NCBI GenBank assembly: GCA_007376385.1 | Contig: VMGC01000001.1 | Span: 192,001-256,000 of the forward strand | DNA length: 64,000 nt | Reading direction: 5' to 3' | Source: Parcubacteria group bacterium Gr01-1014_8 | GTDB taxonomy: Bacteria > Patescibacteriota > Minisyncoccia > Phycocordibacterales > UBA2100 | Part shown: positions 11,111-50,231 of the stretch, one piece after another | Numbering within the stretch: the stretch's first letter is position 1 | Layout of the letters: every line of letters begins with the position of its first letter | The notes under the pieces: model-generated | Told to the model about the DNA's origin: nothing | Database searches by the model: none | Seen by the model: only the letters and a program-made list of their open reading frames with translations | Position numbers and translations under genes: made by a program

Positions 11111-11153
<43 letters not shown>

Positions 11154-13360: not shown

Positions 13361-13372
13361 AGCGAAATTCCT

Positions 13373-14700: not shown

Positions 14701-15552
14701 AACAAATCGGGGTGCGACGTAAGCAATTACGTAGCTTGGCTCACACATGAGACCAAGAACCAACATGTGTGCAGTTCAAATCGTGGCTTATAACGGTGAA
14801 CTCCATGGTATTATAGAACAATCGTTCTATAGTATATGGACAATACCGTGGGAAGTTTAACTCAATTACAGCGATCAATAATTATCGGTAGTCTCTTAGG
14901 TGATGGCTACTTACGGATCGTACCGCGCAGATACAATGCGTTTCTCGAGATCAATCATTCGTATTCACAAAAAGAATATGTTGATTGGACATTCGAGATG
15001 CTCAAATCGATCTGTAGAAGCGGTCCGAAGATGCGAAACGGAAATGGTGTGCGAATTGCATACCGTTTTACGACTCGTCAAATGCCGGAAATCACCGAAT
15101 TGTTCAAAGTGTTTTATGCCAATGGCAAGAAATAAATTTCGAACAATTTAAGATTAGATCCGATAATGCTTGCTGTATGGTTCATGGATGATGGAAGTAG
15201 GTGTAGCGTTGAGAACGTGTACCTTAATACTCAGCAGTTTAATTTCGATGATCAAGAAAAATGCAGGGCAATGCTCATGCGGCTTGGTATCGAAACAACT
15301 CTCAATAAGGACAAGAAGTATTTGAGAGTGAGGATAAAAACATCCTCAATCCCAAAACTTCATAAAATTATCTCACCGCACATCATTCCATCCATGAAAT
15401 ATAAATTGGGTTATAACCCCGTAGAGACTCGCTTCTTCGGAAGCGGAGTTACTGACTCTGTAATGAGCAGTAGCTAACACGCCACCTCCTTTCAATAGAA
15501 AGGATGATGATATAGTCCGATCCTTCCAGTAATGGAAGAAAAAATGACATTG
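14701..15552 (+). mobile_element. third intron-like insertion in 23S (near L2500-equivalent, GGCACCT|CGATGTCGGCTC) with split LAGLIDADG gene
   Basis: Exon resumes at CGATGTCGGCTCATC (~15553). Contains ORFs 14836..15135 and 15166..15477. Confidence 0.7.
14836..15477 (+). pseudogene. double-motif LAGLIDADG homing endonuclease interrupted by an in-frame TAA (two ORFs: 14836..15135 and 15166..15477)
   Basis: First half carries IIGSLLGDGYL; second half carries VWFMDDGS. Spacing fits a single ~210 aa enzyme. Stop codon at 15136-15138. Confidence 0.6.
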
Positions 15553-15786
15553 CGATGTCGGCTCATCTTAGCGCGGGGCTGGAGAAGGTCCCAAGCGTAT
15601 GGCTGTTCGCCATTTAAAAAGGTACGTGAGCTGGGTTCAAACCGTCGTGAGACAGGTTGGTCTTAATCTGCTGTAGGCGTTGATTCTTGAGGAGACTCAT
15701 TTTTAGTACGAGAGGACCGAAATGAACTGACCTCTGGTCTGGGGGCTGTAGTACCAACTGCATCGCCCCGTAGCTATGTCGGGATT

Positions 15787-15819
<33 letters not shown>

Positions 15820-16004
15820 GACTCCAAGATTAGGAATCGTTATAGACTCGTGGGAGATGACCACGTTGATAGGCACCAGGTGGAAGCGCAGTAATGCGTT
15901 GAGCCGAGGTGTACTAATTAGTCGACAGAATTCTCGAAAGGAATTTTGGGAGTCGCGATACTGGTTTATTGCGACGAGCGAGGACGAAGCGAAAATTTAT
16001 TGGC

Positions 16005-16094
16005 GACGTAGGGCGAGAGAAGCGAAAATGTACTCATTTTCATTTCCGAGCCGAGGAGCCAAAATAGGGTCGAATACCCTTTATTTTCATTTCG
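16005..16094. repeat. ~92 nt dispersed repeat, copy A (between 23S and 5S)
   Basis: ttattggcgacgtagggcgagagaagcgaaaatgtactcattttcatttccgagccgaggagcc...ctttattttcat; ~88% identical to 29877..29970. Confidence 0.8.
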
Positions 16095-16260
16095 TCCGAG
16101 CGAAGGCGCAACAAAGGGTTACTACCCTTTATTGCGAAGTAACAAAACGCATTCTTTCTTTCTGTGGTTCGCCGAAGCTCGCACAAGCGAGCGTAGGAGA
16201 CTGCATTGTGTCGTTCTTCGGTTGCCGAAGGCAAAGTTCATTGCAATTGAAGTTTTTGTT

Positions 16261-16363
16261 CTGGTGATTTATCGCTGGGGTCACACCTGTTCTCATTCCG
16301 AACACAGTAGTTAAGCCCAGTTGAGGCGATGGTAGTCGCAAGGCGAGAGTAGCTAGTCGCCAG
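16261..16363 (+). rRNA. rrf: 5S ribosomal RNA
   Basis: ctggtg...CCGAACACAGTAGTTAAGCCC...GAGAGTAGCTAGTCGCCAG with terminal helix pairing. Confidence 0.85.
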
Positions 16364-16379
16364 AACAAAGATTTCAAAG

Positions 16380-35092: not shown

Positions 35093-35830
35093 ATGCGCGT
35101 TGGCTCGGTCGGTATCATTGGGTACGGTAATTTTGGCGCGTTTTTACACGTGCTATTGAAGCGTTTTGCGCCGCAGATCACCGTCCGCGTCTTCACGCCA
35201 GAAAAGAAACCAGATGGCGCCACATTCTTTTCGATGGAAGAAGCGGCTGTGTCAGACGTTGTTGTGCTTGCTGTTCCTATCAGCGAATTTGAGAACGTAT
35301 TGGAGGATGTATTGCCACACGTCAAAGAGACCAGTGTCATCGTGGATGTCGCCACCGTGAAAATGCATACCGCAGATGTGCTCAAGCGGCTCGCGCCACA
35401 TAGGTCATATATTGCAACTCATCCGATATTCGGGCCCGAGAGCTATGCAAAACGGGAGGGGAACGTATCCGGTTTCAGAGTCGTCATTACGGACCATACC
35501 CTGTCAAAAGATGTGTACAAGGCTACTGTATCGTTCTTAAGGAAAACAGGTTTTGCGGTCATTGAAGTGAGCGCGGATGAACATGATAAACGCTTGGCAC
35601 AAACGCTCTTCTTGACACATTTTATCGGGCAAACCATCACTGAAGCAGAATTTGACAGAACTGACATCGACTCGGTTTCATTCGGATTTCTGATGGATGC
35701 TGTAGAGAGCGTTAAGCACGACAAGCAATTATTTCAAGATGTCTATCGCTACAACCCGCACTGCAAGGCGACATTGGACCGGTTTGAAAAGGCAGAAGCA
35801 AACGTGCGCCGGATGCTCGATAAAAGCTAG
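35093..35830 (+). CDS. tyrA: prephenate/arogenate dehydrogenase
   Basis: VGIIGYGNFGAF NAD-binding motif; aromatic-pathway context. Confidence 0.6.
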   Translation: MRVGSVGIIGYGNFGAFLHVLLKRFAPQITVRVFTPEKKPDGATFFSMEEAAVSDVVVLAVPISEFENVLEDVLPHVKETSVIVDVATVKMHTADVLKRLAPHRSYIATHPIFGPESYAKREGNVSGFRVVITDHTLSKDVYKATVSFLRKTGFAVIEVSADEHDKRLAQTLFLTHFIGQTITEAEFDRTDIDSVSFGFLMDAVESVKHDKQLFQDVYRYNPHCKATLDRFEKAEANVRRMLDKS

Positions 35831-36969
35831 AGGTATTCGTCAATATTGTCTACGTTGATGCAAATACTGGCGCGCACATAGCGCTCACCGTTCGTCCCAT
35901 ATGCACTGCCAGGTGTAAAGAGCACTTGTTTTTCTTTGAGCAAGTCCATGCAAAAAGTCTCTGAATCTTTTGCCGAGTCAGGTATTTTCGCCCAAATATA
36001 GAGGCTTCCTTTCGGGATTTCCAAGATGAGCCCCAGTTTTTTCATTTTCTCAGCGATGACATCACGGCGTTTTTGATAGGAAGAAAGCATTGCCGCGTGC
36101 CACTTTTCGTCACGATTATTCAGGGCGTATGCGCCGAGGAGTTGCAAGGGAAGCGACATGCCGGAATCCATTTGCGACTTCACCTTCTGCATAGCCGCAA
36201 TGATGTCTTTATTTCCAACTATCCAGCCCATCCGGAAACCTGCAAACGAGAACGTCTTTGAAAATGATCCTATTTCGACGCAATGTTCTTTTGCGCCTGC
36301 AACCTGAAGAATACTCGGCGCGACGAACCCATCGAATGTTATTTCTGCGTATGCGTTGTCATAAATAATTGGGAGGTCGTGCTTTTTTGAGAACGCCGTG
36401 ATTTCTTTGAGCTCATCGAGCGATGCAACGGCTCCGGTCGGGTTTCCGGGGAAATTCACCCACATGTATTTTGTTTTGTTCGTGATTTGCCTTGCAACAG
36501 AATCAAACATCGGCTTGAAATCATGTTCTGGCAGCAAGTCGTAATAATTGGAAGTAACTCCGAACATTGGACCTGGTTCGCTGAAAGGGGGATATCCAGG
36601 GTTCGGCGCCAGTACGTTGTCGCCTTCGTCTGCCAAGGCAAGAGGTAAGTGGCTAATCCCATCTTTACCGCCCAGTAGCGGCAGCACTTCATCATCCTCG
36701 AGCACAACATCGAATCGTTTCTTGTACCATGCTCGCACTGCATCATTGAATTCTTTGACGCCTTTATATCCGGGGTAGAGATGCGCTTTTGGGTCCCGGA
36801 CAAACTCAAAGAATTTCTGGATATACTTCTCACTCGGTGGAAAATCTGGGCTTCCCGGACCGAAGTTCAAGACTTTTCTCGCAGTCGCTTTTTCAGTTTC
36901 TACTACAGCTCTATTTAGTCTCGAAAAGATGTATTCAGGAAACTTCTCGACACGGTTCGCGATTCTCAT
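35827..36969 (-). CDS. class I/II PLP-dependent aminotransferase (possibly aromatic/aspartate aminotransferase)
   Basis: 380 aa; GSFSKTFSFAGFRMGW (Lys-PLP region). Confidence 0.75.
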   Translation of the reverse strand: MRIANRVEKFPEYIFSRLNRAVVETEKATARKVLNFGPGSPDFPPSEKYIQKFFEFVRDPKAHLYPGYKGVKEFNDAVRAWYKKRFDVVLEDDEVLPLLGGKDGISHLPLALADEGDNVLAPNPGYPPFSEPGPMFGVTSNYYDLLPEHDFKPMFDSVARQITNKTKYMWVNFPGNPTGAVASLDELKEITAFSKKHDLPIIYDNAYAEITFDGFVAPSILQVAGAKEHCVEIGSFSKTFSFAGFRMGWIVGNKDIIAAMQKVKSQMDSGMSLPLQLLGAYALNNRDEKWHAAMLSSYQKRRDVIAEKMKKLGLILEIPKGSLYIWAKIPDSAKDSETFCMDLLKEKQVLFTPGSAYGTNGERYVRASICINVDNIDEYL

Positions 36970-37244
36970 AGTTTTATGTTCTTTTGGATTGCGACGGAGT
37001 TTTTGTGGATCCTAGAGAAGATCTCATTTGCGAGTTTTGTCGATATCTTCATCGCTTTCGCCATGGCGATCCGTGATTTTATGAGCTGCGTTTTTCGTGT
37101 CTTATCGAGCGCTCTCATTCCTTTCTCGAGCTTATATTTGCCTATCACTTTCGAGAGCTTAGCCCGCTTTGCGAGCGCAGAAAGGATAATGGTGTCCACG
37201 GTGTCTATCTCTTTTCTCAGGCTTTCCAGTTCTTTCTTCTGCAT
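36966..37244 (-). CDS. chorismate mutase (AroQ class)
   Basis: 92 aa; LRKEIDTVDTIILSALAKRAKLSKVIGKYK. Confidence 0.7.
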   Translation of the reverse strand: MQKKELESLRKEIDTVDTIILSALAKRAKLSKVIGKYKLEKGMRALDKTRKTQLIKSRIAMAKAMKISTKLANEIFSRIHKNSVAIQKNIKL

Positions 37245-37269
37245 AGTTCAGAATGTAGCGTATTTGGGG

Positions 37270-37560
37270 GCTTTTGTCGCGCCTACGTTGACAGAGGGAA
37301 GAAATGGGGTAGAGTCTGGTGAGTTAAAGCTGTTCAGGTCCCGTCCGCCAGTTGGCGGAGGGGGTTGGGCCTGGATTCCTTAAGTGGGAAAGTGGTCATT
37401 GCGTAAGTGGTGACTCGGACTCCTCCGTAATCAGGATAACTGATGTCCACCAGCTGGCGGAGTCAGCGAAAGTCCGCCTCTGGCGGAAAAGTAAGGTGGC
37501 ACCGTGTCGAGAGACGCCCTTACATCGTAACGAATAGTTGCGGCGTGAGGGCGTTTTTTA
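37270..37560 (+). promoter_or_regulatory. T-box-like riboswitch leader upstream of trpE
   Basis: AAGGTGGCACCGTG (37495-37508) matches T-box core AGGGUGGNACCGCG at 12/14 positions. It is followed by hairpin acgccct...agggcgtttttt; further upstream lie repeated helices ccgccagttggcgg / ccaccagctggcgg. Confidence 0.45.
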
Positions 37561-37702
37561 TTAGAAACTGTCCAAAAAAGTCCAATTGCGTCGTTGCGAG
37601 CTGTGGTACTCCCTCACAATACGTCATGTATTGTTCGGTTCGTTCCTCGCTCGCGCCTAGCATTCGGAGCTTTTTGAAACAGTTTCGGGGCATCAGAACA
37701 GC

Positions 37703-39049
37703 ATGAAAATTCCAAAAATAAAATTAGGGCAAAAACCGACTTACGTGAAGATCGCGGAGGATGTGGATTTCTTTGATTTGTTCAAAAAGGTGGAAGAGCA
37801 TTTTGAAACGTGCTTTATTTTCGAATCACTCGGAGAAGAGGGAAAATTCTCTCGCTATTCCATTATCGGTTTCGATCCAGCTCACGTGGTATCTGCCCGC
37901 GAGAAGATACTTACATTTGATGGCGAACGATACGATGTAGAAAATCCATACGCTGCTTTGAGGCAGATCATGCCGAGGCAAACCATTGCGCGGAATTACG
38001 CAGGGGGGCTCATCGGGTATTTAAGCTACGAGGCAGTGAACTATTTTGAGCCGAAGGTTTCGGTGAAGGTTCATGATTCATTCGAGCAATTCATGTTCGG
38101 CGTTTATTTAGACGGGCTCATACTGGACAAACTTACGAACGAGCTTTTTTACTTTTACTATGACAATGATAGAAGCGGCACTCTTAAGGAAGTAATGCAT
38201 AGAGTTCCCAATAAGAAATCGTTCACAGCGGAATTTATTAAGGATGGTCTCACCCAGAAAGAACATGCGACGATAGTAGAGCGCGTCAAAGAACATATTC
38301 GAGCGGGAAATACGTTCCAGTGCGAGGTCGGTTTCAAGAGCGCGTACAAGGTAGGTGGGGACGTTGTCGCTATTTACGAGAAGTTGCGGGATGTAAATCC
38401 TTCTCCTTTTATGTATCATCTCAAGTTCGGGGCAAAACACATCATCGGGGCAAGTCCCGAGCTTTTATTTTCTCTTCGAGACGGTGAAATGACGACGCGT
38501 CCTCTTGCGGGAACTATTCGTCGCGGAAGGGATGACAAAGAGGACCAGCTGCTCGCAAGAAAGCTTCTTAGCGATCCCAAAGAGCGAGCGGAGCATACGA
38601 TGCTCGTTGATATGCATCGGAATGACATCGGGCGTGTTGCGAGGTTTGGCACCGTCCGCGTCAAAGATCTGATGACAGTCAAGAAGTTTAGCCACGTACA
38701 GCACATGTCGAGCGAAGTCGTCGGCGTCATACGGCCGGGCGAGGACATGTTCTCGGGGCTCCAGAGCAATTTTCCAATGGGAACGATTTGCGGCACGCCG
38801 AAAGTGGAGACGCTGAAGATAATAGATGCAAATGAGCCTGAAGCGCGCGGACCGTATGGTGGAGGCGTTGGGCATTTTGGATTCAACGGTGACTGCACAT
38901 TCGCGCTTACACTTCGTTCAGTATTCATACACAACTCCAACGCATATACGCAGACATGCGGCGGAATCGTGTACGACTCGACACCGGAGAATGAATATGA
39001 GGAAATTCAAAGAAAATCAGCTGCGATGAAAAAAGTACTTGGCGTATGA
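37703..39049 (+). CDS. trpE: anthranilate synthase component I
   Basis: 448 aa chorismate-binding enzyme; LLFSLRDGEMTTRPLAGT...GGGVGHFGFNGD. Confidence 0.85.
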   Translation: MKIPKIKLGQKPTYVKIAEDVDFFDLFKKVEEHFETCFIFESLGEEGKFSRYSIIGFDPAHVVSAREKILTFDGERYDVENPYAALRQIMPRQTIARNYAGGLIGYLSYEAVNYFEPKVSVKVHDSFEQFMFGVYLDGLILDKLTNELFYFYYDNDRSGTLKEVMHRVPNKKSFTAEFIKDGLTQKEHATIVERVKEHIRAGNTFQCEVGFKSAYKVGGDVVAIYEKLRDVNPSPFMYHLKFGAKHIIGASPELLFSLRDGEMTTRPLAGTIRRGRDDKEDQLLARKLLSDPKERAEHTMLVDMHRNDIGRVARFGTVRVKDLMTVKKFSHVQHMSSEVVGVIRPGEDMFSGLQSNFPMGTICGTPKVETLKIIDANEPEARGPYGGGVGHFGFNGDCTFALTLRSVFIHNSNAYTQTCGGIVYDSTPENEYEEIQRKSAAMKKVLGV

Positions 39050-39642
39050 AAATACTTATCATAGATAATTACGATTCGTTCACCTACAACCTCTATCAAC
39101 TGGTGGGGGAAATTTTGAAAGCAGAACAAGGAGATTTCACTATTGATGTTGTGCGCAACGATGAGATAACCCTCGATGAAATACAAAGGCGCGCGTACGA
39201 CAGAATAATCATCTCCCCAGGGCCAGGTGACCCGAGTGACAAACACTATTTTGGTGTGTGTGCCGATGTCATCTTGCATGTTGGCAAAAAGACGCCAATT
39301 CTCGGTGTGTGCCTTGGAATGCAAGGAATTGCGCACTATTTTGGCGGGAAGGTTGTTCGCGCAAAAGTACCGATGCATGGCAAGACAAGTGAAATAGAGC
39401 ACGATGAAAAAGGTGTCTTTGCAGGACTTCCGCAGGGTCTCGAAGTCATGCGTTACCACTCGTTGGTGGCGGAAAAAGAATCACTGCCTAGTTCGCTTGT
39501 CGTCACATCAACGGCGAAAGATTCTGGTGAGATAATGGGACTTCGCCATGTGAAATATCCGATAGAAGGTATTCAATTCCATCCAGAGTCATTTGCAACA
39601 GAAGGAGGAAAAAGACTTCTGGAAAATTTCTTGAAGGTATGA
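39046..39642 (+). CDS. trpG: anthranilate synthase component II (GATase)
   Basis: 198 aa; ILGVCLGMQ, HPES motifs. Start overlaps trpE stop. Confidence 0.85.
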   Translation: MKILIIDNYDSFTYNLYQLVGEILKAEQGDFTIDVVRNDEITLDEIQRRAYDRIIISPGPGDPSDKHYFGVCADVILHVGKKTPILGVCLGMQGIAHYFGGKVVRAKVPMHGKTSEIEHDEKGVFAGLPQGLEVMRYHSLVAEKESLPSSLVVTSTAKDSGEIMGLRHVKYPIEGIQFHPESFATEGGKRLLENFLKV

Positions 39643-40649
39643 TACTGGACTTATTAAAGAAACTCGTTGAGAAAAAAGACCTGACTGTTTCGGAGTCGGA
39701 GCAATTCCTATTGGAAGTGATGAAAGGGGGAGTGAGCCCGACATGTATCGCAAGTATTCTCGTTGCACTGCGAATGAAAGGCGAGTCAGTTGATGAGATA
39801 GTCGGATTCCTCCGCGCGATGCGCGCGAACATGCTGAAAGTGAATGCGCCGGACGCGATTGATATCGTAGGAACCGGTGGGGACGGAAGCGGCACGTTCA
39901 ATATCTCGACTACCGCGGCTTTTGTGGTTGCAGGGGTGGGAGTAAAAGTGGCAAAGCACGGTAACCGTGCGGCAAGCAGCAAGTGCGGAAGCGCGGATGT
40001 TTTGGAAGCACTTGGCGTGAATATTCAGCTTACGAAGGAACAGGCGGAAGAAGTGTTTAAAAATGTCGGGCTCGTCTTTATGATGGCGCCTCTGTATCAC
40101 CCCGCGATGAAAGAGGTTGCCGCCGTCAGAGAAGAATTAAAGATACGAACTGTTTTTAATGTCCTAGGTCCATTCGCGAACCCTGCTTCGACGCAAACAC
40201 AATTAACTGGTGTTCCGAATAAGGCCATCGCAAAGAAATTGGCGGAGGTCGGCAAGCGGCTTGGCTACAAACGACTTCTCGTTGTCTCGAGCAATGATGG
40301 GATGGACGAGATAAGTTTGTCGTCAAAGACACATATGTTCGATGTCTATCGCGGCAAAGTAAAGAAATCGCTTATCGACCCGAAAAGATATGGATTCAAG
40401 CGCTCATCCAAGAAAGATATTCTTGGTGGGGATGCAACCGAGAACGCAGCTATTATCCGAGCGATTTTGAGTGGTGGAAGCGGGGCACAGCGTGACGTCG
40501 TTGTCTTTAACAGCGCGTTCGCGCTCTATGCTGCTGGCGCAGCCGCTTCAATTCAAGAGGGAATAGAGAAAGCTAAGCAGTCTATTGATAGCGGCAGCGC
40601 GCTTCGCGTATTAGAGTCATTGATACGGGAGACACAGAACTTCGCGTAA
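39639..40649 (+). CDS. trpD: anthranilate phosphoribosyltransferase
   Basis: 336 aa; IVGTGGDGSGTFNISTTAAFVVAGVGVKVAKHGNRA. Confidence 0.88.
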   Translation: MILDLLKKLVEKKDLTVSESEQFLLEVMKGGVSPTCIASILVALRMKGESVDEIVGFLRAMRANMLKVNAPDAIDIVGTGGDGSGTFNISTTAAFVVAGVGVKVAKHGNRAASSKCGSADVLEALGVNIQLTKEQAEEVFKNVGLVFMMAPLYHPAMKEVAAVREELKIRTVFNVLGPFANPASTQTQLTGVPNKAIAKKLAEVGKRLGYKRLLVVSSNDGMDEISLSSKTHMFDVYRGKVKKSLIDPKRYGFKRSSKKDILGGDATENAAIIRAILSGGSGAQRDVVVFNSAFALYAAGAAASIQEGIEKAKQSIDSGSALRVLESLIRETQNFA

Positions 40650-40656
40650 CTAACCT

Positions 40657-41937
40657 ATGATCAGTGTTCAACTACAGCCGCTAACTGGCCCCGCCAATAC
40701 GAGCGTCGATATACCCGGCTCTAAAAGCTATACAAACCGCGCACTCCTCATGGCGACGATGTGCCGTGAGGCTGTTCGGATCCTTAAACCGCTGGTGAGT
40801 GACGACACGAGGGCGATGCTCAACTGTTTAAAGACTCTTGGTATCAAGGTTGAGGAAAAGAGCGACGAGATAACGGTGATAGGGCATATAACGGACGTGA
40901 AGAATCAGGACTACGAACTTGATGCCGACCTCTCAGGCACAACGATTCGATTTATGCTCGCCCTTTCATGTGTTTTGCCCGGTGTTCAAACATTGGTTGG
41001 AAAAGAAGGTCTCAACAAGCGCCCTATCAAGGATCTCGTTGATGGTCTTAGACAGCTCGGTGCAAAGATAGAATACCTTGAAAAAGAAGGCTTTCCGCCT
41101 CTTCGAGTTTCTTCGTATGAATTGAATCCCGGGACTATCCGCCTGAAGGGAGGGGTAAGCAGTCAATTTTTGTCTGCCATTTTGATGATTGTTCCGCAGG
41201 TGGGGGATGTCACGCTCGAGGTCGAGGGTGAGCAAATATCAAAGCCCTACATAGACATGACAATAGATACTATGTCGCGCTTCGGTGTATCAGTTGCTAA
41301 TTTGAACTACCAGCGGTACCGCGTCTCGGTTGGACAGGTCTACCAAGGTACTGAATATACGGTCGAAGGGGACGTTTCGAGCGCTTCGTACTTCGCTGCG
41401 ATTGCCGCGCTCACGAAGTCTCGCATAACGCTCGCGAACATGAATCCGCAGTCCGTGCAGGCTGACATGCATTTTTTTCACATTCTTGAGGACATGGGCG
41501 CGTCTGTCAGCTATGAGAAAGACAGAATAGTCGTGGTGGGAAATGGCGTGATGCCAATGGAAGTAGATATGGAAAATTGTCCCGACCAGGCTCAAACAAT
41601 GGCGGTTCTCTCTGCGTTTGCTCCGGGCGTAACGAAACTTTCTGGGGTGCGCTCGCTTCGTCTGAAAGAGACAGAAAGGGTGAAAGCGCTTGAAGCGGAG
41701 CTTGCGAAGATGGGCATCAAGACCGAATCAACTGAAGATATGCTCACGATATACGGAGGTTCGCCAAAAGCCGCAGCAATAGACACCTACGGCGACCACA
41801 GGATGGCAATGTCTTTCGCGGTTGCGGGGGCAATGCTTGATGGCATGCAAATAAACGATTTCGGCGTTGTAGGAAAGACATTTCCTCAATTTTGGGAGAA
41901 ACTCGAATCAATTGGAGTCGGAGTAAAAAGGGTATGA
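40657..41937 (+). CDS. aroA: 3-phosphoshikimate 1-carboxyvinyltransferase (EPSP synthase)
   Basis: 426 aa; PGSKSYTNRALL, LRLKETERV, GDHRMAMSFAVAG. Confidence 0.88.
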   Translation: MISVQLQPLTGPANTSVDIPGSKSYTNRALLMATMCREAVRILKPLVSDDTRAMLNCLKTLGIKVEEKSDEITVIGHITDVKNQDYELDADLSGTTIRFMLALSCVLPGVQTLVGKEGLNKRPIKDLVDGLRQLGAKIEYLEKEGFPPLRVSSYELNPGTIRLKGGVSSQFLSAILMIVPQVGDVTLEVEGEQISKPYIDMTIDTMSRFGVSVANLNYQRYRVSVGQVYQGTEYTVEGDVSSASYFAAIAALTKSRITLANMNPQSVQADMHFFHILEDMGASVSYEKDRIVVVGNGVMPMEVDMENCPDQAQTMAVLSAFAPGVTKLSGVRSLRLKETERVKALEAELAKMGIKTESTEDMLTIYGGSPKAAAIDTYGDHRMAMSFAVAGAMLDGMQINDFGVVGKTFPQFWEKLESIGVGVKRV

Positions 41938-42458
41938 ATATCGTACTCATCGGAATGCGCGGGAGCGGTAAATCGACTGTTGCAAAAATGCTTGCGAAGA
42001 AGCTTGGCCGGAAATATATGGAATTGGACGACGAGATAGCCAAAAAAGCCGGCGCGCGCATCTCTGAAGTCGTGGAGCAGCAGGGTTGGAATTATTTCCG
42101 CGTGAGAGAAGCGGAGGTAGTCGAAGAAGCTGCTGCAGTAGACAATACGGTCATCTCCACCGGGGGTGGTGTTGTCTTGCAGAGTAAAAACGTTCAAGCA
42201 TTGAAGAAAAACGGTATCTGTATCTTTTTAAGCGCGCCAATCGAGGAACTGCTTCCACGCATTGGTGAATCGTCTACCAGACCGCGGCTTACAGGTGCAA
42301 AGACGATGAAAGAGGAATTGGAGAAAGTATGGGAAGAGCGCAAGCCGTTGTACGAAAAAGCAGCGGACGAGACTATTGATACTACAGGCATGAAACCGAA
42401 AGATATTGCCGAGGAAATAGTGCAGAGACTTAAAAAGAAGCATATAGTGCAAATCTGA
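41934..42458 (+). CDS. aroK: shikimate kinase
   Basis: MNIVLIGMRGSGKSTVAKMLA Walker A motif. Internal start chosen to overlap aroA stop (ATGA). Confidence 0.8.
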   Translation: MNIVLIGMRGSGKSTVAKMLAKKLGRKYMELDDEIAKKAGARISEVVEQQGWNYFRVREAEVVEEAAAVDNTVISTGGGVVLQSKNVQALKKNGICIFLSAPIEELLPRIGESSTRPRLTGAKTMKEELEKVWEERKPLYEKAADETIDTTGMKPKDIAEEIVQRLKKKHIVQI

Positions 42459-42459
42459 T

Positions 42460-43542
42460 ATGGCAGGAAATTCATTCGGACAACTTTTTAGAATAACGAC
42501 ATTTGGTGAATCGCACGGCGGGGCTGTTGGGGTTGTACTGGATGGATGTCCGCCGGGGATTCAAATAACCGAAGAAGAAATCCAAATTCAGCTCGACCGT
42601 CGGAAGCCGGGGCAAAGTCATATCACGACGTCTCGCAAAGAGGCAGATAAAATAAAGATACTTTCTGGCTACTATGAGGGAAAAACGACTGGGACACCGA
42701 TACTTCTTATCGCATACAACGAAGATGCTAAGTCGGGGGATTACAAGGAACTGATGAAAGCGTACCGCCCGTCGCATGCAGATTACACGTACGAAGCAAA
42801 ATACGGCTTCCGCGATTGGCGTGGAAGCGGCCGCGCTTCGGCGCGCGAGACGCTTGCGCGCGTAGCAGCCGCGGCGATTGCACAGAAATATCTACAAGAA
42901 AAAGAGGGAATTGAGTGCCTGAGTTTCGTTGAACAAGTCGGCGACATCAAGGCGGATGTTGATGTTGAGAAAGTGCAGATGAAAGACATAGAATCCAACA
43001 TCATTCGATGTCCCGACCAGAAAGTGGCGGAGAAGATGATCGCGCTTGTTGAGAAAACGAAAGCAGAGGGTGATTCCATCGGCGGTATCATTCAGGGTGT
43101 TATTCGTGGCGTGCCAGCGGGCCTAGGCGAGCCGGTATTCGATAAAATTCCTGCTGACCTTGCGAAAGCAATGTTAAGCATCAATGCAGTCAAGGGATTC
43201 GAAATGGGGCTTGGGTTTCGAAGCGTCGGCATGAAAGGAAGTCAGCACAACGACCCGATGGAAATCCGTGATGGGAAAATTCGGACGAAAAAGAATGACG
43301 CCGGAGGCACATATGGTGGCATTTCAAGCGGCGAAACGATTCATTTCCGCGTTGCGTTCAAACCTGTCTCAACTATTGCAAAAGAGCAGGACACTGTCAC
43401 AACTGAAAAGAAGGCAACAAAACTTGCAGCCGCCGGTCGCCACGACCCGTGCGTCCTCCCCCGCGCCGTCCCCATCGTCGACGCCATGTCCGCGCTCGTC
43501 ATCATGGATCACTATCTTCGCAACAAGGCGCAAAATAAGTAG
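42460..43542 (+). CDS. aroC: chorismate synthase
   Basis: 360 aa; FGESHG, GRSSARET-like (GRASARETLARV), GRHDPCV. Confidence 0.88.
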   Translation: MAGNSFGQLFRITTFGESHGGAVGVVLDGCPPGIQITEEEIQIQLDRRKPGQSHITTSRKEADKIKILSGYYEGKTTGTPILLIAYNEDAKSGDYKELMKAYRPSHADYTYEAKYGFRDWRGSGRASARETLARVAAAAIAQKYLQEKEGIECLSFVEQVGDIKADVDVEKVQMKDIESNIIRCPDQKVAEKMIALVEKTKAEGDSIGGIIQGVIRGVPAGLGEPVFDKIPADLAKAMLSINAVKGFEMGLGFRSVGMKGSQHNDPMEIRDGKIRTKKNDAGGTYGGISSGETIHFRVAFKPVSTIAKEQDTVTTEKKATKLAAAGRHDPCVLPRAVPIVDAMSALVIMDHYLRNKAQNK

Positions 43543-43554
43543 TACAATTTCCGA

Positions 43555-44058
43555 ATGAGCATGGAAGGCGGACCAAAACCTAGGAAAGGAATTCTTTCTG
43601 GTTTACAGAGATGGCTTGAACAACGAAAAGAACGAATAACGCTTGAAGAGGTAAGAGATCACTTGAGCTTTAATCTGTGGAAAACAGCCGATGCGGTGTG
43701 CACAGAAATCTTGGAAAATCGATTAGCGCAAGGCCGCACAGCTCCTAAATACACGAAGCTTAATCTCGATCGATCAAATTACTCTGAGTGGCAGTCGTAT
43801 TTTGATATGCGTTCGAGAACATCGAACTTTTGCATCCGCTTGTTTTCGATGAGGGAAGCGGATGTTAAGCAAGAAAATGAACTTACAGATCAGGAAAGGC
43901 AATGGGCTCGAACAGGTCCATCAGATGACGATCGCAGAAAGACTTATTTTGCTAATACTGGACATCATATCCCGTATTTTCGGCTTGTTCGAGGAGGTAG
44001 TCGACGTCGTGTTGAACAAAGTGAAGGAGATTCGTCGCCGATTACGGTTAAATCTTAA
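43555..44058 (+). CDS. hypothetical protein
   Basis: 167 aa ORF at the end of the trp/aro operon, charged; no motif. Confidence 0.4.
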   Translation: MSMEGGPKPRKGILSGLQRWLEQRKERITLEEVRDHLSFNLWKTADAVCTEILENRLAQGRTAPKYTKLNLDRSNYSEWQSYFDMRSRTSNFCIRLFSMREADVKQENELTDQERQWARTGPSDDDRRKTYFANTGHHIPYFRLVRGGSRRRVEQSEGDSSPITVKS

Positions 44059-44064
44059 TTTGAT

Positions 44065-44889
44065 CTATAATTTCAGTTGAGACATCGTTTTTTCCACCGC
44101 GGAAATCTTCTTGTTCTTCTTTAGGGCGACAACAAACACACTTCCTGCGATCACAATATCCGCTACTTTGGACAAATCTTTTACATCCTTTTTTGACTTA
44201 ACACCGAATCCAACGGCCACGGGAAGTTCAGAAGTGCTTCGCAGTGTTTTTATAAATGCGGGCAAATCGGACGCAAACACACTTGTTGCTCCGGTGATTC
44301 CTTGTCGCGTTGTGCAGTACCAGAACCCCGTTGCGTCTTTTGCGAGCGTTTCAAGGCGTTCCTTTGGAACGCCGGGGGATACAACAGGAATTAATGCAAT
44401 ACCAGCTGCCTTGCACGTCGCAAGCAGAGACCAGCCTTCCATCGTGTCGAACGGACAATCTGGAACAATTAATCCGACCGCCCCAGCGTTGGAGATGGTC
44501 TTGATGAATTTTGGGATGCCCATCCGGTAAATAGGGTTGGCGTAAGTCATCACAACGACCGGCTTCTTGAATTTCGCAACCTTTTTTACGACTTCTAGAG
44601 CTTTTTTGACTGTCGCGCCTTTCTTGAGCGCCTCTTCGCACGCGACCGCAATTGTTGGGCCATCAGCCATTGGGTCGGAGAAGGGGATTTGCACTTCGAT
44701 AATATCTGCTCCACCTTTGGCGAGTGCCTTTGCGACCTGGATGGATTCAGAAATCGTCGGAAGCCCCGCGATCATGTGCGCCATGAAAAGAGATTTTTTC
44801 CCTCTGTTTTCCAATAAAACCATCAAGGCGACGCCTTGATGGTTTTTCTCAATGGAAGTTGTCATTCTAGTCATAGCGGTTGTATTCAT
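44065..44889 (-). CDS. trpA: tryptophan synthase alpha chain
   Basis: Motifs PFSDPMADGPTI, CTTRQGITGA. Start may be the internal MVLLEN... at ~44823. Confidence 0.85.
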   Translation of the reverse strand: MNTTAMTRMTTSIEKNHQGVALMVLLENRGKKSLFMAHMIAGLPTISESIQVAKALAKGGADIIEVQIPFSDPMADGPTIAVACEEALKKGATVKKALEVVKKVAKFKKPVVVMTYANPIYRMGIPKFIKTISNAGAVGLIVPDCPFDTMEGWSLLATCKAAGIALIPVVSPGVPKERLETLAKDATGFWYCTTRQGITGATSVFASDLPAFIKTLRSTSELPVAVGFGVKSKKDVKDLSKVADIVIAGSVFVVALKKNKKISAVEKTMSQLKL

Positions 44890-46078
44890 CTTTGAGGAAG
44901 TCTCTGAAGCTTTTGTCTTTGAAGGCGCGGGCGAAGTTGAAAAGGTCTTTGTCGCCGCGGCCGGAGAGTGTAGCGACGATGATGTGATCCTTTTTCATTT
45001 TTGGGGCGATTTTTATCACATGTGCAAGTGCGTGCGCGCTCTCGAGCGCGGAAATTACTCCTTCGAGTTTCGCGAAGAAATCTACCGCCGCAACCGCTTC
45101 TGTATCCAGCGCATACGTAAGTTCCAAGCGCCCTTCTTGGTAGAGGTCTGCGAGTTCGGGACCAAGTCCTGGGTAATCGAGTCCGGCGGAAATAGAATGC
45201 GTGGGCGCAATTTGACCGTCGTCCGTCTGCAGAAAGAGAGATTTGTATCCCTGAAATATCCCCAACACTCCTGCTATTTTTCGGGATGCATGCTGTCCAA
45301 CCTTTTTTCCAATTCCTCCCGCCTCCACTCCTATCAATCGCACTGAAGATTCAGGCACAAAGTCATAAAAACTGCCGATGGCGTTTGAGCCTCCGCCGAC
45401 GCAGGCAACGACTACATCCGGGAGCTTGCCTTCGCGCTCCTGTAGTTCAGAACGAATTTCTCGTCCAATGATGGATTGGAAGTATCGGTTCATTTCGGGA
45501 TATGGTTTTGGGCCAAGCACGGAGCCGATGCAGTAATGCGCTTTCTCAAGATTTTCCATCCAGAATTTTAGCGCCTCGTTCACCGCGTCTTTCAGAGTCT
45601 TGCTTCCGTATTCAACGGGAATTACTTTCGCACCGAGTCGTTCCATCAAGAATACATTTGGTCTCTGGCGGCGTATGTCTTCGTTTCCCATGAATACTAC
45701 ACACTCAAGTCCTAGTTTTGCCGCTACCGTTGCTGTTGCGACGCCGTGTTGTCCTGCGCCAGTTTCTGCGATGAGCATCTTTTTGCCCAGTTTTTTCGCC
45801 AGGAGCCCTTGTCCGAGGCAGTGCGTTATCTTATGAGCACCAGTATGGTTTGCGCCCTCGTTCTTCAGATATATCTTCGCGCCGCCAAGTTTCTTCGTTG
45901 CCCGCTCTGCAAAAATGAGGGGAGTAGGACGGCCAGAAAAATTCTTTAAGAGGTCTCTGAATTCCTTTTGGAACTCGGGGTCTCTTTTTGCTTTCTCAAA
46001 TGCGGCGATAAGCTGCTGCAGGGTCTCCCATAGCATTTCGGGTATATATGCTCCGCCGAATGTCTCACGCTCTGTCAT
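44867..46078 (-). CDS. trpB: tryptophan synthase beta chain
   Basis: 403 aa; LKNEGANHTGAHKITHCLGQ (PLP Lys), GGGSNAIG. Confidence 0.9.
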   Translation of the reverse strand: MTERETFGGAYIPEMLWETLQQLIAAFEKAKRDPEFQKEFRDLLKNFSGRPTPLIFAERATKKLGGAKIYLKNEGANHTGAHKITHCLGQGLLAKKLGKKMLIAETGAGQHGVATATVAAKLGLECVVFMGNEDIRRQRPNVFLMERLGAKVIPVEYGSKTLKDAVNEALKFWMENLEKAHYCIGSVLGPKPYPEMNRYFQSIIGREIRSELQEREGKLPDVVVACVGGGSNAIGSFYDFVPESSVRLIGVEAGGIGKKVGQHASRKIAGVLGIFQGYKSLFLQTDDGQIAPTHSISAGLDYPGLGPELADLYQEGRLELTYALDTEAVAAVDFFAKLEGVISALESAHALAHVIKIAPKMKKDHIIVATLSGRGDKDLFNFARAFKDKSFRDFLKDEYNRYD

Positions 46079-46863
46079 ATCATTGCTTTCTGAAGTTCTC
46101 GTATCTTCTCGAGGGGGTCATTAGACTCCAGAATCGCAGTTCCAACAAGGATTCCTCGGACGCCGGTTTTGCGAACACGAAGCACATCATCAGCCGTGTA
46201 AATTCCTGATTCACTCACGACGGGTATGTCTTTGGGGATGGAGTTCATCAGCGTTTCTGTTGTGCTGAGGTCTATTTCCATAGTTCGGAGGTTGCGGTTG
46301 TTGATGCCGATGAGTTTTGCATTCGCTTCTATCGCCTTTTTCACATCTTCTTCGTCGTGCACTTCAACGAGACTTCCGATGCCAAGCGATTCTCCAAGGG
46401 ATATGAGTTCAGCGAGCTTGTCTTTCTCAAGCACCGCTGCGATGAGAAGAAACGCATCGCCACCCCCGGCAAGTGTTTCGTAGACCTGGTATTCATCAAC
46501 GATAAAATCTTTTCTTAGAATTGCTTGCGGAACTTTTTCTCGCACGTGCTGCAACAATTCAAGACTCCCGCCGAAATATTTGTTGTCAGTAAGAACGGAA
46601 ATCGCGTCCGCTGCACTTTCGGCGTACAGTTCTGCAACTTTGAGCGGGGAATCGATGAGTTTACCGGCGGAAGGAGAGCGCGGCTTTATCTCTGCAATGA
46701 GAACGCTTGATCCGGGGTCGCTAAATCGCGAGCGAAATGGTCTCGCTTTTCGGTATTGTTTTTGCTCCGATATACGTGCTCGCAAGACCTCAAGCGGCAC
46801 TTTCTTCATCCTCTCTTCCAGTTCGGAGCGGGTATTAGATACTATTTCATCGAGTACTGTCAT
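46075..46863 (-). CDS. trpC: indole-3-glycerol phosphate synthase
   Basis: 262 aa; LIAEIKPRSPSAG, GINNRNL. Overlaps trpB start. Confidence 0.85.
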   Translation of the reverse strand: MTVLDEIVSNTRSELEERMKKVPLEVLRARISEQKQYRKARPFRSRFSDPGSSVLIAEIKPRSPSAGKLIDSPLKVAELYAESAADAISVLTDNKYFGGSLELLQHVREKVPQAILRKDFIVDEYQVYETLAGGGDAFLLIAAVLEKDKLAELISLGESLGIGSLVEVHDEEDVKKAIEANAKLIGINNRNLRTMEIDLSTTETLMNSIPKDIPVVSESGIYTADDVLRVRKTGVRGILVGTAILESNDPLEKIRELQKAMI

Positions 46864-46935
46864 GCTCGGCTATTATAGTGATTATCACGAATTTACCTAG
46901 CGTTTTAGCCCTTTGCAGTCTACGATGGAGCATTC

Positions 46936-47574
46936 ATGGTTAAGGTGAAGATCTGCGGCAATACGAGCAAGGAAACTGCGCTTGCCGCGCTTTCGTATGG
47001 TGCAGATATGCTTGGATTCATTGTGAATGTTTCTGGATCAAAGACTTCCATAACGCCAGAGCAGGCGCGTGAAATTATTTCTGCGCTGCCGTCTGGCGAG
47101 ACTGTGGTGGTTACAACTGCAACAGATGCTCAGGAAATAAAAAGACTTGCACAGGAAACTGGCGTTTCAACAATTCAATACCATGGTGAAGTGTCACCGG
47201 AGACAATTGCAAAGATAAAAGATGAGCTACCGAATATCGCCGCGTGGAAAGTAATCCATGTGAAAGATGAGAGTGCGATTGATGAAGCAAGGAAATATGA
47301 AAGTATCGTAGACGCGATACTTTTGGACACAGCACAGGGCGGCCAAATCGGCGGAACTGGTACTACGCATGACTGGAATATTAGCCGCATAATTGCAGGT
47401 GATTATTCCAAACCGATCATCTTGGCCGGGGGACTGAATCCAGACAATGTGGAGGAAGCAATACGGGTCGTGAAGCCCTATGCGGTAGACGTGAACTCCG
47501 GTGTTACTAACTCGGATGGCTCAAAGGACCTTGAAAAAGTGAAGCTTTTCATAGAACGTGCAAAGGGCAAATGA
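46936..47574 (+). CDS. trpF: phosphoribosylanthranilate isomerase
   Basis: 212 aa; MVKVKICGNT...GFIV, LAGGLNPDNV. Confidence 0.8.
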   Translation: MVKVKICGNTSKETALAALSYGADMLGFIVNVSGSKTSITPEQAREIISALPSGETVVVTTATDAQEIKRLAQETGVSTIQYHGEVSPETIAKIKDELPNIAAWKVIHVKDESAIDEARKYESIVDAILLDTAQGGQIGGTGTTHDWNISRIIAGDYSKPIILAGGLNPDNVEEAIRVVKPYAVDVNSGVTNSDGSKDLEKVKLFIERAKGK

Positions 47575-47671: not shown

Positions 47672-48340
47672 AGAAGGCTTGAACTTTGACAACTGAATAT
47701 GAAAAATTGTACGCAAAACCAAAAAAGAAATTGGTAAGTAAAATTGTTGCCGGCGCTCGCTCGGAATTGAAAATTTATTTTCATTTCGCTCGCTCGCATG
47801 GGCAATAAGAATTCTTGTTGTTCTCAAGTTAGGAACAATAAGACACACACAAAAGCAAGAAAACAGAAAATACATATTGAGGTTCCAGGAGGATCTCATG
47901 TGTAAGTAAACAGTAATAACGAGACAAAAGATCCCCCAAGGGGACTGCGACTTTCTACGATTCAAATGAATCGTGAAAGTCGGGAGATATACATTCTTTT
48001 GTTTCGTCCATCCTAGAGATATTGAAGCAATTCAAATTCTTGAAAGTGGTGTAAAAACCATTTTTACTTAGAGTTTGATCCTAGCTCAGGGTGAATGCTG
48101 GCGGTATGGATAAGGCATGCAAGTCGAATGGGTTAGACCCATGGCAGACGAGGTAGTAACAGGTAGGTACGTCCCCGGAAGTCGGGCATAACCAGCCGAA
48201 AGGTTGGATAATTCCCGATGGTCTCGCAAGAGTAAAGATTTATCGCTTCCGGAGCGGCCTGCTTTGTATCAGCTTGTTGGTGAGGTAACGGCTCACCAAG
48301 GCTATGACGCATAGGGGACCTGAGAGGGTGACCCCCACCG

Positions 48341-48377
<37 letters not shown>

Positions 48378-48891
48378 TGCAGCCGAGAATATTCGACAAT
48401 GGGCGAAAGCCTGATCGAGCGATACCGCGTGGTGGATGAAGCGCTTCGGCGCGTAAACACCTTTTATGAGGGAAGAAATTTTGACGGTACCTCATGAATA
48501 AGGGGCTCCTAACTCTGTGCCAGCAGGAGCGGTAATACAGAGGCCCCAAGCATTACCCGGAATTACTGGGCGTAAAGGGTGCGTAGGTGGTCATATTAGT
48601 CGCCTGTTAAAACCCACGGCTCAACTGTGGAACCGCGGGCGAAACGGTATGACTAGAGAGAGTGAGAGGTGAATGGAACTCATGGTGTAGGGGTGAAATC
48701 CGTTGATATCATGGGGAACACCGAAAGCGAAGGCAATTCACTGGCACTTTTCTGACACTCAAGCACGAAAGCGTGGGTAGCGAACGGGATTAGATACCCC
48801 GGTAGTCCACGCCCTAAACGATGATCGCTGGATTTGGGGAGTATCGACCCTCTCCGAGTCGAAGCTAACGCGTTAAGCGATCCGCCTGGGT

Positions 48892-48923
<32 letters not shown>

Positions 48924-49386
48924 AGACGGGGGCTTGCACAAGTGGTGGAGCGTGTGGCTCAATTCGTCGCTAAGCGAAGAACCTTACCAGGGCTAGAAAT
49001 CCAGCTGCATACTTTGGGAAACCTTAGTAGCCTTCGAGGGTGCTGGACAGGTGATGCATGGCTGTCGTCAGTTCGTGGTTTGAATCGTTCCCTTCAGTGG
49101 GGTAACGAACGCAACCCTCGTTGCCTGTTATATTTGTCAGGCGAGACTGCCCCCTCACGGGGGAGGAAGGTGAGGATGACGCCAAGTCAGCATGTCCCTC
49201 TGATGTCCTGGGCTGCACACGCGCTACAATCGCCGTTACAACGAGGCGCAACGTCGTAAGACCGAGCAAATCTTTCAAAAGCGGCGCCAGTTCGGATTGA
49301 GGTCTGCAACCCGACCTCATGAAGCCGGAATCACTAGTAATCGCGGGTCAGCCACACCGCGGTGAATACGTTCTCAAGCCTTGTAC

Positions 49387-50231
49387 TCACAATAAAAGCG
49401 CACAGCAGTGTACATATCTATGCGGTTAAAATCCGCACCTCTCTTTCGTACAGAGAGCGTAGCAGAAGGATAGTTGTTATCCGCGAGGATGATAATGGAG
49501 GATCCTAATGCAAAGAGCAGCCATTTCGCACAAAAGCCGACCGACCTGTCAATGGGTGGTGAGGATAGGGAAGGTCCTAGAAAGGCAAGAAAATGGATGC
49601 CTAGAACAGATACGCACATAACCTGTGGAGATCTGACGCTGTTATCCCAAAGATGGGATATGATGAATCTGACGCAGCGTCAGAAGTCAGCTGAGTCATA
49701 GTATTTGCAGATATGCAAAAAAGGACTCACTCAAAGCAAAATCTTAGTCCAGATTATGTTGTTGGACTCGTAGATGGTGAAGGAAGCTTTACTGTCTACG
49801 TAAGAAATCCAGACATAGAGAAAAAAGTCGCTCGAAGAGTGGTTGTAGAGCCAAAATTCTACATAAAACTAATCGAACGCGACAAAGATATTCTCTATGC
49901 ACTTCGAGATTTCTTCGGATGTGGAAGTATTTACTTCCAAAAAGATAATCGTCCGAATCATCAACATTGCTATCGTTACGAGGTCTTCCGGTGGGAAGAA
50001 CTTCAAACGATAATCATTCCGTTCTTCAAGCGGCACGTTCTCAAATTCGCGTCAAAACGGCACGACTTTGAAGTGTTTTGCATGATGATGGAGCTTCTCA
50101 AAAAAGAAGCACATCGAACGGAAAAAGGACTACGAGAGTTGTTTAAGTTGAAACAACGCATGCATTGAGCTCGCGTAGTGCGGGAAATCCGCTCGCTACG
50201 TGGGAACATCAATTCTTAGATTCAAGAAGAT
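49387..50231 (+). mobile_element. intron-like insertion in 16S (after CTTGTAC, ~E. coli 1392) carrying a LAGLIDADG gene
   Basis: Interrupts the universally conserved TTGTACACACCGCCCGTC. Contains ORF 49713..50168. Confidence 0.65.
49713..50168 (+). CDS. LAGLIDADG homing endonuclease (intron-encoded)
   Basis: 151 aa; YVVGLVDGEGSFTVYV motif. Similar architecture to the 12820..13320 protein. Confidence 0.85.
   Translation: MQKRTHSKQNLSPDYVVGLVDGEGSFTVYVRNPDIEKKVARRVVVEPKFYIKLIERDKDILYALRDFFGCGSIYFQKDNRPNHQHCYRYEVFRWEELQTIIIPFFKRHVLKFASKRHDFEVFCMMMELLKKEAHRTEKGLRELFKLKQRMH

Follow-up and report, generated by a model that had tools for sequence, protein, structure and literature searches.

A probable tRNA-Trp-sensing T-box attenuator with a reduced Stem I upstream of a trpEGD-aroAKC operon in a Patescibacteria bacterium

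Control of trp operons by T-box leaders is ordinary in Firmicutes. In structural work, the long Stem I that provides a platform for the tRNA elbow is regarded as typical of T-boxes operating co-transcriptionally, and T-boxes devoid of this platform as mostly translational. Members of the CPR/Patescibacteria are generally thought to be without amino-acid biosynthesis. Described T-boxes fall into several classes that differ in the build of their 5' half. Class I (RF00230; Bacillus subtilis tyrS type) includes the Trp T-boxes of Dehalococcoides, which are found at trpE and at a trpB-like gene (PMC2494555). In class IV (Actinomyces odontolyticus ileS) the specifier resides in a side bulge flanked by a pair of Stem I helices, and in class III (Nocardia farcinica and Mycobacterium tuberculosis ileS) in the apical loop; the apical-loop specifier of N. 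farcinica ileS defines the latter class, and members of both classes are mostly translational and depend on a K-turn and on the Stem II S-turn (PMC10482949; PMC7583486). The glycine-specific class II (glyQS) is likewise a reduced T-box and tolerates loss of the S-turn function of Stem II, which was ascribed to the G+C-rich codon-anticodon duplex (PMC7583486). No literature linking T-boxes with CPR, Patescibacteria, Parcubacteria or Saccharibacteria was found in a search whose coverage is incomplete and which leaves novelty unproven.

The leader described here was found in a stretch of 64,000 nt (the window, i.e., the whole DNA that was analysed). It belongs to a region (37270-37560) between two divergent genes, coding for chorismate mutase (36966-37244, minus strand) and TrpE (37703-39049, plus strand). 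A first-pass annotation had proposed a T-box-like leader in front of a trpEGD-aroAKC operon, and Pfam indeed assigns trpE, trpG, trpD, aroA, aroK and aroC to the downstream genes (37703..43542), which abut or overlap on the plus strand; the adjoining ORF 43555-44058 is possibly a further member of this operon. The T-box leader itself spans 37329-37559 on the plus strand. Upstream of it, a sigma-70-like promoter (TTGACA-16 nt-TAGAGT; 37288..37315, plus strand) is predicted from sequence only, the position of which suggests a transcript start at about 37322; the -10 hexamer TAGAGT recurs at the equivalent position in two related loci (L002 and L001). The nearest TrpE loci in the genome collection are all from Patescibacteria MAGs, namely from Candidatus Kaiserbacteria (85 % identity), a MAG carrying the label Saccharibacteria (78 %), a member of the 'Patescibacteria group' (59 %) and Magasanikbacteria (53 %). 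The host belongs to the CPR/Patescibacteria and not to the Firmicutes.

At the Rfam gathering score, no T-box was reported in the window. In E-value mode, RF00230 matched 37324-37524 along its entire length (model positions 1-219) with 29 bits, to be read against a gathering score of 93 bits (E = 1.4e-4 in a search of 601 nt and 0.015 for the whole window). The family search suggested with the original T-box proposal hence returns the complete model, at a sub-threshold score. The match falls well short of the gathering score owing to the truncation of Stem I (53 nt in the alignment versus 87 in the model), while the T-box core is present. The discriminator half is well aligned, Stem II is shorter than in the model, and 27 nt are inserted after the IIA/B element. 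Sub-threshold matches were obtained at the corresponding position in front of trpE in L005 (48.7 bits), L002 (30.4 bits) and L001 (25.7 bits), and in L003 a T-box core and terminator were recognised by eye. The fold of the 253-nt leader has a z-score of -6.55.

Relatives of the leader were collected by scanning metagenome contigs with a pattern that joins two conserved motifs (TCCTCCGTAA-N38-68-AAGGTGGNACCG). Apart from two chance matches, the 47 loci retrieved represent about 40 distinct leaders. A covariance model (R1) was built from 15 leaders, with the structure projected from the window. It detected exactly one copy in the window, at 37327-37524 with 147.5 bits. The loci yielded 41 more, one of them an additional L018 copy missed by the pattern, for a total of 42. 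Within the R1 alignment, 93.1 % of the cells form standard pairs in the proposed structure versus 39-51 % when the 3' partners are slid by 1-3 columns, and 38 of the 51 pairs have changed on both sides. The covariation score is 0.431, whereas the slid partners attain no more than 0.105, and none of 500 shuffles reached the observed values. Since the alignment was fitted to the model structure and the search pattern had fixed parts of the pseudoknot and of the T-box core, invariant stretches are uninformative in this respect; the signal is carried by helices outside the fixed motifs, i.e., lower Stem I, Ib, Stem II, the extra helix, Stem III, A1 and A2.

The base of the decoding module (37329..37393, plus strand) is formed by a closing helix P0, Stem I and a hairpin Ib, meeting in a three-way junction at the place of the K-turn, and the same bases are paired in the Rfam alignment. 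P0 (37329-31 with 37391-93, plus strand) displays compensatory changes among the relatives (GCU/AGU, ACU/AGU, AUCC/GGAU, CGUCU/AGACG, GCCU/AGGC, GUCU/AGGC). It is only 50 % paired in the automatic alignment, where junction lengths differ among rows, and in a separate check an automatic helix picker mispaired several rows including that of the window, such that support for P0 is partly by eye. The short Stem I (about 45 nt; 37332..37376, plus strand) comprises a lower helix (37332-39 with 37369-76) and an upper hairpin (37340-63). All eight pairs of the lower helix show changes on both sides (95.9 % of cells paired), and the CCC/GGG pairing of the upper part is found in 100 % of cells. This upper part forms a simple hairpin with differing tetraloops (AGUU in the window, GAAA in L002, AGAU in L001). 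Neither an AG bulge nor a distal loop nor an elbow platform was detected in Stem I of the window, and the plain upper hairpin means that an AG-bulge/distal-loop platform for stacking of the tRNA elbow cannot form. The leader thus has no provision for the elbow contact used by canonical transcriptional T-boxes. The paired helices previously noted upstream of the T-box core, ccgccagttggcgg and ccaccagctggcgg, do exist as hairpins, but are not mutual partners: the former (37346-37359) caps Stem I as its apical hairpin, and the latter (37447-37460) is the tip of the extra helix described below.

Hairpin Ib (UCCU-UAAGU-GGGA; 37377..37389, plus strand) constitutes the third arm of the junction, as indicated by covariation of all four pairs (81 % of cells paired). 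No K-turn was recognised in the window leader when tandem G.A candidates were sought, while about ten relatives without Ib possess a recognisable GUUGA.../UGA K-turn at that place. From this mutually exclusive occurrence we infer that the K-turn and the three-way junction with Ib may be interchangeable. The junction is followed by a mini Stem II, a 22-nt hairpin (37394..37415, plus strand) with an invariant UGC-N4-GUG tip, six of whose nine pairs have changed on both sides (98.6 % paired). Rfam aligns its AGUG to the AGUA of the S-turn, and the invariant UGC next to the tetraloop replaces the GAA strand. The module ends with the Stem IIA/B pseudoknot (37416..37436, plus strand), in which IIA (element 37416-27) pairs CGG with CCG (37416-18 with 37425-27) and IIB is formed between the loop UCCU (37421-24) and AGGA (37433-36); the F-box-like sequence is CCGUAA. 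All of the 164 cells of this pseudoknot are paired, with most copies invariant and the motif fixed by the search pattern; a double compensatory change (UCUC with GAGA) occurs in one relative, the L018 copy at 4328-4535. An alternative pseudoknot between the IIA loop ACUCC and GGAGU (37459-63) was rejected: UCCU/AGGA, 9 nt downstream, is conserved, and GGAGU forms part of the extra helix.

The candidate specifier resides in a one-sided bulge, GU-UGG, on the 3' side of Stem I (37364..37368, plus strand), with the tryptophan codon UGG at 37366-37368 and the subsequent G37369 paired with U37339. A UGG in Stem I had been named earlier as something to look for, and of the three UGG triplets that the window leader has in its 5' half, the one in this bulge is alone conserved across the relatives. 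In short-stem relatives the bulge always reads NN-UGG, with variable NN (AU, GU, AC, AA, GC, or shorter), and the base following UGG is G, pairing with U or, in L013, with C. The first genes downstream of NN-UGG leaders are trpE (7 distinct leaders), trpB, genes for TrpB-like PLP enzymes, a trpD-like gene, and genes for a glutamine amidotransferase, a GCS2/YbdK-like ligase (9 loci) and a few others. Apparent targeting of tyrS (L027, L030), considered as contradictory, was dismissed: in both loci the T-box is followed by a small Cys-rich ORF, which has a terminator of its own, and tyrS lies beyond. Leaders preceding PGDH-like genes (L018a, L028, L038) carry UUCGG in the Stem I bulge instead; the register is ambiguous, reading UCG (Ser, fitting serA) if both 5' U pair with G, and CGG otherwise. 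In two further leaders (L040 and L021), the 3' half found in the short-stem leaders is joined to a canonical long Stem I whose specifier loop reads GAA-UGG-A; the L040 leader precedes the same GCS2-like gene family as do short-stem leaders.

As the relatives were gathered with two motifs fixed and may therefore all belong to a single Trp-specific subfamily, invariance of UGG by itself does not separate a specifier from a structural constant. The PGDH-like UUCGG exception together with the canonical relatives with long Stem I speaks for the specifier, and UGG 37366-68 is thus supported as Trp specifier, in agreement with the trp genes presumed to be regulated. Bacterial tRNA-Trp carries G73 as discriminator base. 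On the contig of L040 a tRNA-Trp(CCA) gene was found that ends in G73-CCA, and the T-box bulge of L040 is UGGC; within the 64-kb window no tRNA-Trp gene was detected. Other relatives contain UGGU, in agreement with U being common at the variable position of UGGN in Trp T-boxes (46 %; PMC7778990).

Between the pseudoknot and Stem III, the leader contains an extra helix (P-ins, CUGAU...GUCAG; 37440..37466, plus strand), which represents the 27-nt insertion relative to RF00230 in the Rfam alignment. All five of its pairs covary (96.2 % paired), and the hairpin AUCAG-GAUAA-CUGAU of the minimum-free-energy (MFE) fold was rejected, the relatives keeping the long-range CUGAU/GUCAG helix. The subsequent segment (37468..37489, plus strand) consists of the purine string GAAAG, Stem III (UCCGCC/GGCGGA with loop UCU; 37473-78 with 37482-87) and AA, and corresponds to RRRxG-Stem III-AA, the discriminator motif of T-boxes (PMC7583486). 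All six pairs of Stem III covary; the close relatives L001, L032 and L049 have no separate Stem III and carry the extra helix in its place.

The T-box core assigned in the first-pass annotation, AAGGTGGCACCGTG, is present at 37493-37506, i.e., 210 nt upstream of the trpE ATG (37703). It forms part of an antiterminator (37492..37522, plus strand) indicated by folding and covariation, which is composed of helix A1 (UAAGG/CCUUA), the 7-nt T-box bulge UGGCACC (37497-37503) and helix A2 (GUGUC/GACGC) closed by the loop GAGA. Folded alone, this element attains -11.9 kcal/mol. The first pair of A1 is UA in 19, AU in 14 and CG in 6 relatives, and A2 covaries as well; the A2 pair next to the bulge is G37504-C37517 in the window and G-C or G.U in 21 relatives each. 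The MFE fold also pairs CCACC with the GGUGG of the T-box bulge, which was rejected for lack of conservation. Downstream, an intrinsic terminator (37509..37559, plus strand) comprises a G+C-rich core (37514-37554) with the loop GAAUA and a run of six U (U6, 37554-37559). The previously noted hairpin acgccct...agggcg with TTTTTT is found here (37514-37559), and the terminator fold reaches -33.2 kcal/mol (z = -8.1). An alternative antiterminator overlapping the T-box, looked for as a hallmark of the switch, exists as well: the 5' arm of the terminator includes the 3' strands of both A1 and A2, bases 37513-37522 being common to the two folds. Antiterminator and terminator are mutually exclusive, as in the classic T-box switch. 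Of the 39 distinct relatives whose sequence extends far enough downstream, 37 possess a comparable hairpin (-21 to -42 kcal/mol) bordering on a U run, which makes the family transcriptional. From the U6 end of the terminator, a structured spacer of 145 nt extends to the start of trpE.

Compared to class I, the leader shares the purine string, Stem III, the UGGN-ACC bulge, the terminator and the IIA/B pseudoknot, and with class I Trp T-boxes including those of Dehalococcoides also the kinds of regulated genes (trpE, TrpB-like). It differs from class I by absence of the platform in Stem I and location of the specifier in a one-sided bulge, by a three-way junction where class I has its K-turn, a Stem II of only 22 nt and the additional covarying helix, by a G-C pair closing A2 rather than the G.U wobble described as steric sensor, as well as by its Patescibacteria host and a score of 29 bits versus the threshold of 93. 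The side-bulge specifier between two Stem I helices is shared with class IV, while some of the relatives (L044, L047, L029 and L003) have an apical-loop specifier as in class III. Common to these two classes and the present leader are the lack of an interdigitated T-loop platform and the location of a Stem II domain with IIA/B pseudoknot beside Stem I. However, class III/IV T-boxes are Ile-specific (AUC, ileS), actinobacterial and mostly equipped with a sequestrator of the Shine-Dalgarno sequence (translational, a typical rather than strictly defining trait), whereas the leader in the window displays UGG in front of a trp operon of a CPR bacterium and an intrinsic terminator with U6. They further depend on the K-turn and on an S-turn in Stem II that comes with a 5-purine string, whereas in the window copy the K-turn is replaced and the GAA strand not recognisable. 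The class II glyQS leader, in contrast to the one studied here, has kept the long platform Stem I and is devoid of Stem II and pseudoknot; by analogy to its G+C-rich duplex, the two G-C pairs of UGG:CCA could explain the reduced Stem II in the window. Overall, the leader combines a class-IV-like Stem I with a class-I-like expression platform.

We consider this leader to be a functional, tRNA-Trp-sensing T-box transcription attenuator of the trpEGD-aroAKC operon with a probability of roughly 0.85, as judged from its sequence and that of its relatives. The individual sequence elements, the mutual exclusivity of the two folds, the covariation and the link to trp genes are direct observations. By analogy to described T-boxes, we infer tRNA binding and read-through. 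Transcription would begin near 37322, and the nascent leader would adopt a compact decoding module consisting of the short Stem I with its UGG, the three-way junction, mini Stem II and the pseudoknot, which should pair with the CCA anticodon of tRNA-Trp. In case of uncharged tRNA, its 3' GCCA end could pair with UGGC of the T-box bulge, and this pairing along with GAAAG-Stem III-AA would stabilise the weak antiterminator, allowing RNA polymerase to read into trpE. With charged tRNA, the antiterminator could not close, the stronger terminator would form instead and transcription would stop at U6 (37554-37559). The tRNA-Trp-responsive antitermination originally put forward for this operon thereby gains support from the overlap of the switch, the conserved UGG, the covariation of helices in about 40 relatives and the fit between UGGC and G73 in L040.

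Other readings of the leader were weighed against this one. The missing Stem I platform, K-turn and canonical S-turn strand together with the low Rfam score would fit a decayed T-box relic, in which the truncated Stem I does not bind tRNA and the terminator is constitutive or otherwise controlled. However, the remaining helices have been kept by compensatory changes over about 40 diverged copies, with UGG and UGGN-ACC invariant, and platform-less class III/IV T-boxes bind tRNA tightly (PMC10482949). A relic would escape constraint of this kind, which renders this interpretation very unlikely. Even less probable is a working T-box that responds to a different specifier or tRNA. Several UGG triplets do occur in the window leader, such that the one in the Ib loop (37385-87), the one in GUGG (37392-95) or a register shifted one base upstream (UUG) might be considered, and the register of the PGDH-like leaders is ambiguous between UCG and CGG. 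The Ib-loop UGG is, however, replaced in L002 (AUCAA) and L001 (CGCAA), GUGG turns into GUGA in L001, and the shifted register would read CUG, AUG and UUG (Leu, Met, Leu) in front of the same trpE, whereas UGGC fits G73 of tRNA-Trp in the relative L040.

The terminator could in principle also serve a different type of attenuation, as by an E. coli-type leader peptide rich in Trp, a TRAP-like protein that recognises (G/U)AG repeats or a Trp repressor. These mechanisms are in use at other bacterial trp operons, and at a more distantly related Magasanikbacteria locus (L006) a gene of the Trp_repressor family is located just upstream of trpE in the absence of a T-box. Yet, tandem Trp codons are absent from all reading frames of the leader, as is a regularly spaced GAG/UAG array, no Trp repressor gene adjoins the trpEGD-aroAKC operon in the window, and the conserved UGGNACC bulge and pseudoknot would be left unexplained; we regard this as the least probable of the alternatives. 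An extended version of the attenuator reading adds a second layer of control, acting on mRNA stability or translation, to the T-box proposed here. The candidate is a palindrome of 123 nt (37564-37686) within the spacer, a long imperfect hairpin (z = -3.4) directly upstream of the start-codon region. L001 and L002, the closest relatives, do not have it, however, their terminator lying immediately next to the ATG, and such a second layer seems rather unlikely. Neither a repeat copy in the window or the loci nor an Rfam match was found for the spacer (37558-37702), and the palindrome looks like a lineage-specific insertion.

Beyond the attenuator as such, the window copy and its about 40 relatives may, as a tentative proposal about which some doubt is in order, constitute an undescribed class of T-boxes, that terminate transcription and would capture tRNA during transcription without elbow contact. 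Many of its members lack the K-turn, replaced by the three-way junction, as well as a canonical S-turn, and there is an additional conserved helix. The class would be widespread in CPR/Patescibacteria, which no work found had connected with T-boxes before, with Stem I, within one clade, forming a series from class-I-like via class-IV-like to class-III-like. If this holds true, the near-identical discriminator domains would provide a natural series of Stem I reduction. The combination of a platform-less module with an intrinsic terminator further raises the question how tRNA capture is fast enough during transcription, and with a length of about 200 nt these leaders represent small natural scaffolds for structural work or engineering.

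For genome annotation, the leaders suggest that T-box regulation exists in Patescibacteria and is missed by standard procedures, because every copy found scores below the Rfam threshold; the R1 covariance model may be used for annotating genomes of this group. The leader marks a complete and presumably regulated cluster for tryptophan and shikimate in a CPR genome. It also links gene families of obscure role to tryptophan, i.e., the GCS2/YbdK-like ligase and small Cys-rich ORFs. Independent of the leader, the rRNA genes in the window are unlinked and the 23S rRNA gene extends over 5.4 kb with group I introns; unlinked rRNA genes and an intron-bearing 23S rRNA gene are usual in CPR/Patescibacteria.

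A complete cluster for aromatic amino-acid biosynthesis was identified at 35093–47574 of the window, comprising genes for prephenate dehydrogenase, an aminotransferase and chorismate mutase, the trpEGD-aroAKC operon, minus-strand trpABC, and trpF. The CPR radiation is generally described as devoid of amino-acid biosynthesis, and a complete cluster is unusual for its members. Since the family model (covariance model R1) detects a single copy in the window, the T-box is confined to the trpE operon. An ORF of 167 amino acids (43555–44058, plus strand) lacking a Pfam match lies at the end of the trpE-aroC operon, of which it may be a part.

The segment separating the T-box terminator from the start codon of trpE carries an inserted imperfect palindrome of 123 nt (37564–37686; arms 37564–37589 and 37660–37686; fold z = −3.4). 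The trpE-bearing relatives L001 and L002 lack this element, which has no second copy in the window or the related loci and yielded no Rfam match. In loci L005 and L033 the equivalent terminator–trpE position is occupied by another inverted-repeat insertion, unlike that of the window.

Among the relatives, leaders of the same class were also found ahead of phosphoglycerate-dehydrogenase-like genes (L018, 2679–2860; L028, 1238–1444; L038, 855–1041). These carry UUCGG in the specifier bulge rather than NNUGG, which would give the codon UCG (Ser) in one register and CGG (Arg) in another, and their upper Stem I is much longer. The L018 contig harbours a second leader (4328–4535), detected by the covariance model only, with IIA loop UCUC and partner GAGA; this double compensatory change supports the IIB pseudoknot. 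The trpE leader of a relative with 73 % TrpE identity (L003, 2790–2990; MAG labelled Gammaproteobacteria) is an additional architectural variant: the K-turn is present, Stem I is ultrashort and displays UUGGA in its apical loop, and the middle region differs, lacking the CGGNNUCCUCCGUAA motif. In the Magasanikbacteria relative L006, no T-box was detected ahead of trpE; a Trp_repressor-family gene (2595–2879; Pfam E = 4.7e-18) is located directly upstream, with two terminator-like hairpins in between. Trp regulators thus differ between related CPR lineages.

In nine metagenome loci, the first gene behind the Trp T-box encodes a GCS2/YbdK-like carboxylate-amine ligase of ~260 amino acids (L024, 4728–5585; L040, 5224–6063, minus strand; L025, L026, L034, L035, L037, L045 and L048), which implies a putative tryptophan-linked role for this ligase; one of the nine leaders is of the canonical GAA-UGG-A type. 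Small Cys-rich (zinc-ribbon-like) ORFs without Pfam match directly follow Trp T-boxes in L027 (6598–6822) and L030 (about 2206–2382), both on the minus strand; they have their own terminator, and tyrS is located further downstream.

The rRNA genes of the window (regions 10579–16365 and 48063–49726) are unlinked, with ~32 kb between 23S-5S in the former and 16S in the latter. The 23S gene extends over 5.4 kb and contains one clear group I intron (13363–13607) and two weaker group I matches (13743–14107 and 15438–15539). The full 16S model is covered within just 1360 nt, and a group II intron domain match (49639–49726) is located shortly behind 16S.
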